A stretch of DNA of 59,482 nucleotides, the filler included, from Dugesia japonica (Eukaryota): NCBI GenBank assembly GCA_001938525.1. It is 6 parts of 6 records of this genome, joined end to end, with 100 filler letters (N's around TTAATTAATTAA, not from the genome) between each part and the next. Parts side by side here need not be neighbours in the genome. Positions count along the whole stretch, not along the records: positions 38,541 to 47,436 come from MQRL01621968.1; 5 more parts are not named here. The stretch is one strand, 5' to 3'. Shown in pieces: positions 39,736 through 47,325 of this stretch (positions are counted from its first letter, which is position 1; every line of letters begins with the position of its first letter). Made by a program: the position numbers and the translations under genes. The notes under the pieces were generated by a model. It ran no database searches and had not been told where the DNA came from. It saw nothing but the letters and a program-made list of their open reading frames with translations.

Positions 39736-41244
39736 ATAAATTTTTGGAAGTTTTTGTTAATATTATGTAAATCTATATATATAAATATATTAATTTTATC
39801 AAGTCTGTGAGTTTCAAATATGGCAATGTAAATAAAAAAAATTAAACAGATATTTCAATATTGAAATAATTAATTATCACTATCACCCATATGTCAATGA
39901 AAACGAATTAAAACAAATTCATCCTTTTTCTCATTTATGAATTACGAAAATCTGATTGTCAATTTAGTTTTTAGTGACAAAAATGTGAATTCTAATATTA
40001 AATGGTTTTTTAATAAATAATTTAAATGGCTGTTAGATTTCTATAATTATTTTCTTTATATATATATATATTTTATTACTATTACTAAACATTTGTTTTA
40101 ATTATAAGAGAAATATGTGGAAAGGACTGACTTGACACTGTAAGCAAAGCATACACAACATCCGGGCGCTAAATCTGCAAGTTTTACTAGCAAAACTGGA
40201 TGGTTTGAAACTAAGTTTTTGCCGAGTTATTAAAAATAAAAAACAAGATTGACCATTTATGTATATAAATTTAAACAAAAATTAAAAAATTGAATTGAAT
40301 TAATTGAATTAATTTTAGATTATACATTAAACGCATATGTACAGATATGACACAGCAAATAGATATTTAATGTAGATATTTGTAATAATCAATAAAATAA
40401 AGTCATACCAATATATTAGTTGATATTCTATCCACCATTCCAAAAGAATGTATTTCACTTGTATCTTGTTGAGGGCATCGAGCTAATGTTCTTCCACTTT
40501 ATCTTCTTCCTTTATCCGATTTTTTTAAAATTTNNNNNNNNNNNNNNNNNNNNTCATATTTGGCATTGTTTGTTATACGAGTTTAGAAAAGTATCAACTG
40601 CCTTTTAAAAAATTTCATTTGCTTATTTAAATTCTGTTTTCACTGAATGCCAAAGATAGTTCCGAAAGTTTGAGAGTGGGAATTTTGATCTATCAAAAAG
40701 TAGAGGAGGAAGTTCTTTAAATTTATATAGCAAAGCCCTTTTGACTCTTATCGCAAAAACCCAAAGTTTCCAGATCAGGAAAAGGAAGATCGCTTACAGG
40801 TCTCTCATACCATCATTGCTTCTCAACTTCTTCACTTTGGCAAAGTGAATTAAAAAAGGTTATGGTTTTTTCATTGTTTCAGTGACAGCAACAGACAGAA
40901 TAAGTTGCTCATTGGTTTTTTCTTCCTCTCCAGATTCACGAAAAAAAATCTTTTTAATTAATAGTCAGTGTTTTTTATTAAAATTAAAAGAAAAAGGCTC
41001 TGGCTAACTATCAGTCAGAAGGCAATATCTACAGCCAAAGCAGGACTTTATCCTTGCCTGATAATCTTGTTTGTTTGCTGAGATTATTGCACTATCATAT
41101 ATTTTGAGCTATTAAGAAAAATACATATTTATTACAGGAAACATCTATTGTGATTAATTAGGAAAAATGTACATGGAATTGAAAAATGCAAGACAGTAGG
41201 TAAATAGTAGCGCACTTTATCACCCCCCCCGAGAATAAATTTTT

Positions 41245-41940
41245 TTCAAGGTCACTGATACAGTATACTTTATTTTGAATGGTCATTGATCTCATATACT
41301 CAATTCTGATTACTGGAAATATGAAGTTCGAATTTTCAAAGTCAAAGTATACTCTATTCTGATTGATCAAAACATTTTCAAGGTCAAAGTGATATAGTAT
41401 CCTGCCATCGTATTGGTCAAAGTGATAAAGTATTTTGCGATCTGATTGGTCGAAGCATTTTCAAAGTCAAAGTATACTCTATTCTGATTGATCAAAACAT
41501 TTTCAAGATCAAAGTAAGATAGTATCATGCGATCTGATTGGTCAAAGTATTTCAAGGTCAAAGTGATATAGTATCATGCAATCTTATTGGTCAAAGTATT
41601 TCAAGATTAAAGTGATATAGTATCCTGCAATCTTATTGGTCAAAGTATTTCAAGGTCAAATTGATATAGTATCTTGCGATCTTATTGGTCGAAGTGGTTT
41701 AAGGTCAATGTGATATAGTATACTGTGATCTTATTGGTCAGTACATGTCAAAATCAAAATGATATAGTATCTTGCGATCTTATTGGTCGAAGTGGTGCAA
41801 GGTCGAAGTGATATAGTATACTGTGATCTTATTGGTCAGTACATGTCAACATCAAAATTATATAGTATCTAGTAATCTGATTGGTGGGATATATCAAGGT
41901 TGAATGAAAGTAGGTCAAGGTTAAATGAAAGTAGGTCAAA
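41245..41940. repeat. Subterminal tandem array, ~49-bp unit, about 12-13 copies
   Basis: Consensus TTCAAGGTCAAAGTGATATAGTATCxTGCGATCTTATTGGTCAAAGTAT, with units at 41502, 41551, 41600, 41649, 41698, 41747, 41796 and 41845 and shorter variants upstream. Confidence 0.92.
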
Positions 41941-42247
41941 TTCATTTCCATGACAACTATTTGTAGGTCAGTTTCAAATATCATTTGTTCAGGCCCAATA
42001 ATTATCTTTACCCTTAATCCTTGTGCAGACTTAATATTAATAATCCCCGCACAAGCTTAATATATTTTTTGTTTTAATGCTTTATTTATTTTCTTTTCGT
42101 ATGCTTTTTTGTTTGAATGTTTTAATTTATGAATTTATTTATTTATTTTTTTTATTAAAAATTTTTATTTCAAGTATTTAATACAGTAATAAAGAATAAA
42201 TAAATTAAAATTTAAATTAACATTTATTTAATAACAAACTAAATTAA

Positions 42248-42965
42248 TTAACATAAATTTCTTTTAAAAAGTCTTTTATTAGACTCAGGATAGATAGAGT
42301 CGATAAATTTTCTCTTCAAATCTTTCGTCTTTTCAGAACAATATTCACAATCAATATCTTCTTTATGATATTCGTTGAATATGTTCATAACCTTTTTGAT
42401 ATCAACTCCGGTCGTATGTTTAATTTTAAACAATAACTATTCTGATACGCAGTATAGTATTTCTTCTCTTAGTTTTGGATAACTAGTTTCAAAAGATTCG
42501 ATGAAAAACTCTGAAAAATAATTAATATAATTTAATTTTAAAAAATGAAACCTTTATCAAATACATCGGTTGATTTTTCTAAAAGGTCCACACCTTTATT
42601 AATCAGTATTTCTTCTTCTATCATGGGTACATCTTCAACTGTCTGTACATCAACTATCATTTCTGCATCCTCTTGAATAATTTCTAAGTATCTCATTATT
42701 TAAATAATAAATTAATAAAAATAACTTACCTATTGCTTCAAAAAATGTTTTTTTCTCTTCTTCTAACATTCATTTTTACTACATTTTGTTGATTTTCATG
42801 AGAAAAATTTATATCAATATATTCAACAATATCATCTATAACTTTATCTAAATTCATTGTTAATAAATCTGAAAAATAATGATTTTGTTTATATTGACCA
42901 TTGTTGCACTGTATTGCATTTTCTTTGTTTAATTTGCATTCTTNNNNNNNNNNNNNNNNNNTCAT
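42248..42965 (-). pseudogene. Spliced Polinton accessory gene of unknown function (introns 42729-42684 and 42551-42511)
   Basis: Removing two GT-AG phase-1 introns gives MLEEEKKTFFEAI-EIIQEDAEMIVDV...STDVFDK-EFFIESFETSYPKLREEILYCVSE*LLFKIKHTTGVDIKKVMNIFNEYHKEDIDCEYCSEK...KRLFKRNLC. One internal stop, and a probable frameshift to the upstream ORF. Confidence 0.62.
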
Positions 42966-43362
42966 GCTCTTTGTATACTTGCATTTGAATTGTGTTGTCT
43001 TTCATTAACCTACATTCATGTTACGCAAGTATGACTCATGCTCTTTGTTTTTATTGCATTCGTGTTTCAATCTCTTTGTTTAACTTGCATTTGAGTTACA
43101 CAAGTATGACTCATAGTTTTTCTTGAAATGGATCTGTATTGCATTTTTTTGTTTCAGTTTCTTTAGCGAACTTATAATTTTGAGCCTTCAAGAGGACTTA
43201 TATACTCTCAATCAATATATGTGGACCTAAAGAGGACCAGTACACGTTCACATATATACATTTTTCTTCTTTTTCCTAATTATAAAAGTTTAAAATATTA
43301 TCTAAAATAAAATAAAATCATACTTTGAGGTAGATTGAATTGATATTTTATGAGGAAAAGTA

Positions 43363-45540: not shown

Positions 45541-46880
45541 TTCTATTATTGCATCATCATTGGGGGATCCACAAACTTTTGCTTCTTTACAAACCTATAA
45601 AAGTCTAAATATTCACCTATTTCTATTGATGGATATATGCAATACTTTTCCTCATAAAAAGATTGTGCATAGTACTATTAGTCCGATTTACACAATAATG
45701 CTTTTACATTGTACAACATTCTGGAAAAAATAGGTTGATTACATTTTATAAAATTATTAAAAGTTCATTTAAAAATTAACATAAAATGAAGTGTAAAATA
45801 AATAAAAACGAACTTTTATTATAAATAGGACCAGCAACAGGAGCTGCAAAAACAGACACATCATAATTTAAAAAATAAATATTTAACAACTATCAAATGT
45901 TGATAATAAATTTACTTTAATTAAACTCTTCCTCTTGATACTTCTTTCACCTTGATTTGAATTATTATAATTCTAAAATAAAATTAATAATTAATAAATA
46001 ATAAAAAGAAATTTACATTATACATCATTAAATTTGTTGAATTCATATTTTTATTATCGTTAATATTGTTCATAACCTAAAAGCGTATAATAAATAATAA
46101 TAATAATGAAAATAGTTTATTGTTGTTATTATTATTGTTCATAATCTTAAAAATATATATACAAAAGAGATATAAAAATAACAAACTTACGTATAAAAAT
46201 TGTCGCTTTTAAAATAGTTTTTTGAAAATCTCGAAAAATTAAACTATTTGTGTGTGTATCATGACTTTTTCTATCCCACTTATAAGTGTGTATCAAATAT
46301 TTTTAAATACCACAAGGTAGTATATTGTGACAAGAAATAATTTTTTGATAAAATAATTTTAAAGTACTGCAACGTAGTATATTGCTGCATTTACAAAGTG
46401 ATTAGTCATGAAAATAACAAAGACAAGTTTTTGATTATAACAAAGGTTAATTAACTATTCTTAAGTTAAATAAAAATAAATCAAACAAATATATTCATAT
46501 AATACATTTATTTACATACAACATATACATTTTCAACTATTTTTATAATTACAATTATTGTGAGAATAATTGTTGGACTTAACCATTGATCGGATTTGAG
46601 ATTTCNNNNNNNNNNNNNNNNNNNNNNNNNNNNNNNNNNNNNNNNNNNNNNNNNNNNNNNNNNNNNNNNNNNNNNNNNNNNNNNNNNNNNNNNNNNNNNN
46701 NNNNNNNNNNNNNNNNNNNNNNNNNNNNNNNNNNNNNNNNNNNNNNNNNNNNNNNNNNNNNNNNNNNNNNNNNNNNNNNNNNNNNNNNNNNNNNNNNNNN
46801 NNNNNNNNNNNNNNNNNNNNNNNNNNNNNNNNNNNNNNNNNNNNNNNNNNNNNNNNNNNNNNNNNNNNNNNNNNNNNNNN

Positions 46881-47094
46881 CTATCCAATGTTCTCCACCA
46901 AGATTTGATGTATCAGTATTGACGATTAAAGCTTTATTAACTGGAAAGTATGGTTGTCTGTCTAATGGATATACTCCCAACCATGACGATCCCAACAATT
47001 TTAATCCAGTTTGATTAACCTGAAAAGAACTATTAAAGTAAAATATTGAAATTAAAAAAAAACTTACTTCATAATTTTGATTATTTGATTTCAT
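46881..47094 (-). CDS. Adenain-like (adenovirus-type) maturation cysteine protease, 5' part, probable 48-nt intron 47067-47020
   Basis: WLGVYPLDRQP...ALIVNTDTSNLGGEHW is the Polinton protease motif containing the catalytic His. The remainder is in the N run. Confidence 0.85.
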
Positions 47095-47104
47095 TAGATA
47101 TTGT

Positions 47105-47323
47105 TTACACTAGTATTGTTCTATTAGCATTTATTTGGATTTCGCTTTCAAATACTCCATATATTATAACATATGCTGGCGCGGTCAAAGCTTTAGTAAA
47201 CTTTATATCTAATCTCAGATTTCCTTGTTGAGACATTTGACTCTGATTTATATTAAAATCTGGAGTCAATACAAATGTAACAAACGGATATTTGCTTTTA
47301 AATTATTCACGTGTTATTCCACA
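47105..47323 (-). pseudogene. Polinton major capsid protein (double jelly-roll, PY/hexon-like) C-terminus
   Basis: CGITRE*FKSKYPFVTFVLTPDFNINQSQMSQQGNLRLDIKFTKALTAPAYVIIYGVFESEIQINANRTILV* fits the LTPD...GNLRL..F..AL...Y..F...I.I...R pattern. Missed by the ORF track. Confidence 0.8.
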
Positions 47324-47325
47324 AT

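Follow-up and report, generated by a model that had tools for sequence, protein, structure and literature searches.

Background

Polintons of the Beta-PolB adintovirus type combine a pPolB polymerase with an adenain protease and a double jelly-roll capsid (PMC8502044, PMC8097293). Intact vertebrate Mavericks are described as carrying, and are recognized by, intronless open reading frames (ORFs) (PMC8097293, citing Kapitonov and Jurka 2006), and in nematode Mavericks the core genes are intronless and introns are found in the cargo (bioRxiv 10.1101/2022.07.12.499685). Introners have been reported from maverick-polinton-like proviruses of dinoflagellates (PMC11957031) and group I introns from polinton-like viruses (PMC12220804). 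Surveys of endogenous DNA viruses and Polintons have used ORF finders under the assumption that introns are absent (PMC10120064, PMC9356565). In Dugesia genomes Mavericks are reportedly strongly expanded (bioRxiv 10.64898/2025.12.11.693146), and the short introns of the planarian Schmidtea mediterranea form a length peak at 45-85 nt (PMC13594981). Here we describe a Polinton at positions 41195-47325 of a 59,482-nucleotide stretch of DNA from Dugesia japonica (assembly GCA_001938525.1), which consists of six joined genomic parts with filler and is referred to as the window. We consider it quite probable that this locus represents a decayed member of a planarian Polinton family of high copy number, and that the T-rich GT-AG insert which sequence comparison revealed within the second codon of its clade's protease gene is removed by the host spliceosome.

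The relatives of the window element have the same pPolB, protease and capsid genes as the Beta-PolB type and also carry a chromodomain rve integrase and an A32-like ATPase. In contrast to the intronless ORFs of the vertebrate elements, they show a clade-wide predicted protease intron and 0-5 predicted introns in the 5' part of pPolB. As in the nematode Mavericks, accessory or cargo genes with introns, here predicted ones, are located near a terminus; the nematode core is intronless, however, whereas core genes appear to be split here. The dinoflagellate proviruses likewise contain spliceosomal-type introns. These are repeated host introners, mostly acquired after integration, whereas here one predicted position is shared by divergent lineages and the introns, by inspection, are not repeats of one another. 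In the adenovirus L3 unit the protease gene lies directly behind the hexon gene, and host splicing joins a leader to the intact protease ORF. The capsid-protease order is the same in our clade and expression would also depend on splicing, but the predicted intron interrupts codon 2 of the protease itself.

Spliceosomal introns are not mentioned, under the terms searched, in the available text of PMC10748475 and PMC11296320, nor is splicing in that of PMC8502044. The literature searched, Repbase entries and supplements being outside its scope, yielded no account of introns in the core genes of animal Polintons. A Polinton clade with a conserved, probably spliced codon-2 protease intron and variable pPolB introns is likely to be without an earlier report in this literature.

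A predicted protease intron within codon 2

Relatives of the window protease were compared at fetched loci (L-numbers) and among database proteins (P-numbers). A first protease search gave 2 weak matches, and a search of viral contigs only 2 distant loci. The 64 loci fetched comprised 48 with and 16 without the anchor motif; 3 of the former had too little upstream DNA, which left 45 for scoring. Twelve of these, representing about 9 independent lineages, share an arrangement of ATG plus 2 nt, GT(A/G)A, a T-rich body and AG, with a predicted intron of 37-43 nt. In each of the twelve the first coding exon is 5 nt long, and the ten coding bases behind the acceptor specify S/T-x-Q/E ahead of a conserved I/V. 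The insert length is not a multiple of three in 10 of them and an unspliced reading meets a stop in all 12; hence, judged from the sequences, the stretch behind the donor is not protein in this clade. The initial annotation had proposed an alignment to homologues to see whether it is an insertion. Such an insert is lacking in the remaining 33 loci, where a Met is located 4-9 codons upstream of the same anchor. Among them are L006 and L010, which read M-D-S-L-Q-I-D-K-I-G, as well as L017 and L023, which show the donor pattern without an acceptor and were scored intron-free.

In the window, the readable 5' part of the adenain (peptidase C5) protease gene is located at 46881-47072 on the minus strand, with ATG 47072 as the likely start; most of the protease is unreadable. 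This ATG, the donor at 47067 and the acceptor at 47030 exactly fit the pattern of the 12 intron-bearing relatives, all of which use the equivalent of AG 47030. The window protease most likely contains a phase-2 intron of 38 nt in codon 2 (47067-47030, minus strand), at the position conserved across the clade, rather than one of 48 nt after codon 9, and its removal would result in the N-terminus M-X-S-F-Q-V, X being the junction codon. The intron-free L006 and L010 (M-D-S-L-Q-I) align to the window from 47031/47028. The initial annotation had described a T-rich 48-nt intron that extends from GTAAGT at 47067 to TTTTCAG ending at 47020. This stretch exists, with 58% T and in frame with ATG 47094, but its proposed boundaries were not upheld, and the 5-nt first coding exon of the relatives would move the intron from behind codon 9 into codon 2. 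The 'YE|V' junction of that reading corresponds to ATG-AA|GT in a different frame, an echo that P0004, P0005 and P0007 show as well.

The insert has the features of a U2-type intron, namely GT-AG ends, a pyrimidine-rich body, a restored frame and a conserved position. Strict intron motifs on the coding strand numbered 2 against a shuffle mean of 0.49, and 97 of 1000 shuffles reached 2, which is not above chance. The intron prediction draws on the comparison with relatives, not on motif counts.

A wider protein search was evaluated for the best 120 of 340 matches, and 102 of the 121 proteins examined contained the anchor. Among the matches listed were 25 proteins with long leaders, 20 of which carried Ser at the predicted AG|T junction behind a hydrophobic read-through leader (71% F/I/L/Y/V) with an S-x-x-Q/E-like end. 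The expectation that ORF-only annotation misreads the genes of this clade is thus borne out. Within the same matches, the closest database proteins, at 70-81% to the nearest protease relative P0003, retain S-S-x-Q although its middle residue varies; P0086 (73% to P0003) begins with MNSVQ, as predicted for a spliced or intron-lost form. Because database proteins already show read-through leaders, elements of this clade would be expected to be scored as broken, or to receive false N-termini, in ORF-only surveys. Since Mavericks are reportedly expanded in Dugesia and scoring is by ORF only, active source elements in this genus may be hidden from such surveys.

Clade history and proposed expression

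All 14 intron-labelled rows of the protease tree (49 rows) fall into one clade of 18 rows (support 99/96), which also includes L006 and L010, both intron-free, as well as two rows of unscored intron state. The capsid tree (30 rows) unites 10 intron rows with L006 at a Shimodaira-Hasegawa-like approximate likelihood ratio test (SH-aLRT) value of 100. None of 500 label shuffles was as clustered as the intron rows. A single gain with later loss is the simplest history suggested by these trees: the protease intron would have been gained once at the base of the clade and lost later in a sub-lineage, and individual lineages would afterwards have gained further introns in accessory genes and in the low-complexity 5' portion of pPolB. 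Intron-bearing and intron-free sisters in a compact clade provide a tractable system for studying intron gain and loss.

We propose that the element is transcribed in the nucleus by RNA polymerase II and that the insert would be removed by U2-type, intron-defined splicing, so that only spliced RNA would give the capsid-maturation protease. A conserved intron may be taken as evidence of long-term nuclear, host-spliced expression. It is conceivable, though rather unlikely, that the codon-2 intron acts as a conserved splicing gate, with capsid and protease on one transcript and with the amount of maturation protease, or the host cells in which it is made, set by the slow removal of a very short intron. 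Virion assembly would then be under the control of the host spliceosome, and host range would be limited by minimal intron size.

RNA reads and alternative explanations

A search for matching sequencing runs listed none of RNA, and the runs used shared at best 0.30 of the window words; the reads therefore come from relatives of this copy, and related copies are very abundant in these runs. From run X22, 3,299 reads were placed on the window. At 42499-43779 first mates were mostly on the plus strand (9-79 versus 0.4-11), which in most stranded libraries denotes sense RNA, here of the accessory gene and the 3' end of pPolB in some copies. Three of the 12 best-supported indels across copies were 1-nt indels, at 47053, 47074 and 47075, all of which fall within the predicted intron or ahead of the start codon at 47072. 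The indel at 47075 accounted for 37,853 of 129,774 contig depth in run X1 and for 9,950 of 101,432 in X2. The summed contig depth in X1 was 167,000-441,000 over 46891-47430 (capsid tail, protease and second terminus) and 38,000-122,000 over pPolB, which hints at a very abundant deletion derivative, contig depth not being copy number.

Several observations weigh against host splicing of this insert and its single origin. RNA reads in the protease region were equal on both strands (18 versus 21) and covered the insert, with a depth of 12 at 47053, a pattern that dead copies transcribed as bystanders would produce; accessory intron 1 was covered by 20 RNA reads at 42690. No RNA intron junction was present among the best 15 of 258 joints, nearly all of which came from DNA contigs, and splicing is here predicted rather than seen. 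With 38 nt the predicted protease intron is shorter than the 45-85 nt peak of planarian short introns (PMC13594981). In the relatives (11 loci) capsid stop and protease ATG are separated by -1 to +3 nt, a pattern from which the window family departs: its capsid stop (47107-47105) is located 32 nt before ATG 47072 and, as originally described, 10 nt before ATG 47094. The metagenome loci among the relatives have no assigned host, and the window row of the tree is short (37% of columns), long-branched and unsure in its placement. Finally, a topology holding the ten intron rows together was not rejected (approximately unbiased test, p-AU 0.27), which leaves room for a gain after the split of L006.

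There is a small chance that the intron is ancestral and that the planarian family has shifted to ATG 47094 and the CAG at 47020, resulting in an intron of 48 nt. Both sites are in frame in this copy, the pyrimidine tract at 47020 is strong, the length is within the host peak, and the interval from capsid stop to ATG 47072 is ~30 nt longer in the window family than in the relatives. However, 47030 is the first AG downstream of the donor, the position equivalent to 47020 is AG in 3 of the 12 relatives and AA (Glu codon) in the other 9, and the closest relatives keep S-x-Q as though it were coding. Furthermore, the common 1-nt indels at 47074/47075 would break the first exon of the 48-nt form, and a candidate intron of only 41 nt is present in the same element. 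These observations argue for the 38-nt codon-2 intron.

The absence of splicing, with the inserts serving as translated hydrophobic leaders or as AT-rich spacers ahead of a downstream or non-ATG protease start, is very improbable. Although database gene calls read through the insert, unspliced RNA reads cover it and intron motifs occur in the window no more often than chance would allow, this view is hard to reconcile with the stops in every one of the 12 relatives, the mostly non-triplet lengths, and the invariant GT and AG at a fixed distance from the upstream ATG and from S-x-Q/E. Moreover, most loci are without an alternative in-frame ATG, and the pPolB genes of L004 and L011 need similar excisions for an in-frame N-terminal domain. 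Hardly credible is an origin of the introns as marks of decay, brought by introner-like elements of the host into single copies that had already integrated: it has a precedent in the dinoflagellate proviruses (PMC11957031) and suits the decayed state of this copy, but one position is kept across lineages with capsids 54-63% identical and ORFs otherwise intact, and the inserts vary in sequence and length.

Predicted introns in other genes

In the relatives L011, L013, L014 and L020 one ORF with an early Met spans each of the genes for capsid, penton-like protein, integrase and ATPase, and no capsid intron was found in any complete relative. In L004 the pPolB gene starts with an ATG followed by five predicted GT-AG introns of 42-46 nt and a stop-free ORF of 743 codons, and three introns of 45-53 nt are predicted in L011; in L013 and L020 the same N-terminal Cys/His domain lies within a single, uninterrupted ORF. 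Alignment by eye indicated four pPolB intron positions in common between L003 and L004, where indels of 1 nt were confined to the introns and one of 6 nt fell within an exon. The accessory genes of L006 and L010 have four predicted introns each, of 40-51 nt. The predicted introns of the clade thus range from 37 to 53 nt, at or under the lower edge of the 45-85 nt peak, and their original description as host-sized was roughly correct; the lineage may, as also proposed, be adapted to the host spliceosome. Besides pPolB, separate accessory genes carry the Cys/His-rich N-terminal domain, and 0-5 introns are predicted (L004, L006, L010, L013, L020); a search in Atlas gave only a PHD-finger lead for it (0.87, below 0.9).

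The accessory gene of the window (42248-42857, minus strand) has no assigned family, no homologue among the fetched loci and three predicted coding exons. Its first predicted intron is 46 nt long (42729-42684, GTAAGT-TAG, with one earlier internal AG) and its second 41 nt (42551-42511, GT-AG, ending at the first AG), and their phases agree across the 132-nt exon between them. The claim that removal of both restores one frame holds around the introns, but not for the whole gene, which is frameshifted in the first coding exon and interrupted by a stop in the last. At 45721-46190 (minus strand) is a decayed multi-exon Asn-rich stretch in which 46190-46146 (45 nt) and 46016-45973 (44 nt) are GT-AG candidates. 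It likely represents 5' exons of pPolB, as suggested by its position; no sequence match to the pPolB N-termini of the relatives was found among the fetched loci.

Identity, layout and decay of the element

The element is a Polinton with a double jelly-roll capsid tail, an adenain protease and pPolB, and comparison of these three parts with the relatives supports the initial annotation in this respect. The capsid gene is represented by its C-terminal 71 codons (47105-47325, minus strand, one in-frame stop), which are 51-61% identical to complete capsids of relatives and end abruptly at 47325. One of these complete capsids, that of L013, was modelled (predicted local distance difference test, pLDDT, 88) and, in agreement with the fold named at the outset, matched capsids with a double jelly-roll from PBCV-1 (Vp54), iridovirus, Sputnik and mavirus, with E-values of 1e-13 to 1e-16 for PBCV-1, Sputnik and mavirus. 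P0003 matched PF00770 above the cut-off and adenovirus proteinase 1avp with an E-value of 0.004. A Pfam search with the window capsid, protease (71 aa) and pPolB pieces matched no family. The pPolB remnant at 43363-45594 (minus strand) with an endonuclease VII-like zinc finger shows 35-54% identity (tblastn) to pPolB of L004, L011, L013 and L020. The pPolB ORFs of the relatives are 1150-1300 aa long, share their C-terminal motif with the window pPolB and contain a PF02945 insert. There was no PF03175 match in Pfam, which fits the Beta class, and no match in a sequence search of the PDB; the PolB label is drawn from gene context and sequence motifs. L013 further encodes an rve integrase (E 1e-12) and a Pox_A32 ATPase (E 5e-6), neither of which was found in the truncated window copy by tblastn with the relatives.

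Read on the minus strand from 47325 downwards, the element consists of the capsid tail, the protease 5' part, the end of a repeat resembling miniature inverted-repeat transposable elements (MITEs), the decayed multi-exon stretch, the broken pPolB, the accessory gene, a tandem array of 49-nt CCAAT repeats and an AGTAG terminus at 41195. This terminus (41195-41245, plus strand) starts with AGTAG followed by a C run, and no partner end was found within the window. Inside it, at 41382-41885, a 49-nt unit containing a CCAAT box is repeated in tandem ~10 times, possibly forming an array of NF-Y sites. The MITE-like repeat end (46541-46605) is of high copy number, with further copies at 13.9, 17.4, 21.3 and 48.6 kb. 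A second AGTAG...C-run terminus at 47326-47380 (plus strand) belongs to another element, because its orientation equals that of the first, and truncates the capsid gene. The pPolB remnant contains stops and frameshifts, and ~340 codons of the polymerase part are missing near 43760. The copy is truncated, decayed and, as previously stated, inactive.

Additional genes were observed in the relatives. A TATA-binding-protein-like gene is located beside the ATPase gene in L011 (2160-2618; PF00352, E 3e-17) and, by sequence similarity, in L013 (~2393-2866). Cargo genes for a ubiquitin-conjugating E2 enzyme (PF00179) and a dual-specificity phosphatase (PF00782) were found in L013:225-722 and L014:919-1260, the phosphatase gene with an apparent intron at its 5' end. 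A conserved ORF of 135-160 aa starting with M-S-x-Y-F-I-D-x-x-G follows the protease in L005, L009, L013, L014 and L020; it appears DEDD-like by eye, was without a match in Pfam and was not found in the window copy.

Other features of the window

The window sequence is AT-rich, repeat-rich and of animal type. EGFR-like kinase exons (Pfam PF07714) are located at 23.9-27.6 kb, and the short introns of 46, 48 and 52 nt noted earlier for this gene were recovered as GT-AG candidates at 25467-25512 (46 nt), 23889-23936 (48 nt, by eye) and 27413-27464 (52 nt). Inside or just behind this gene region, at 29490-32480, is a second decayed pPolB of the same Polinton clade, rearranged by inverted duplication (arms 29976-30192/32238-32454 and 31467-31712/31994-32240). 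At 7240-8000 there is a fragment of a third pPolB, which is older. A decayed Gypsy-type long terminal repeat (LTR) retrotransposon occupies 10580-13800, with reverse transcriptase and integrase-like frames recognized by eye and similar ends at 10306 and 13760. At 50393-51283 the window contains a host exon of an NPY-type G protein-coupled receptor, which marks the host as a planarian of a species other than S. mediterranea: its identity to NPYR-6 of S. mediterranea is 79%, the next matches being at 38%.

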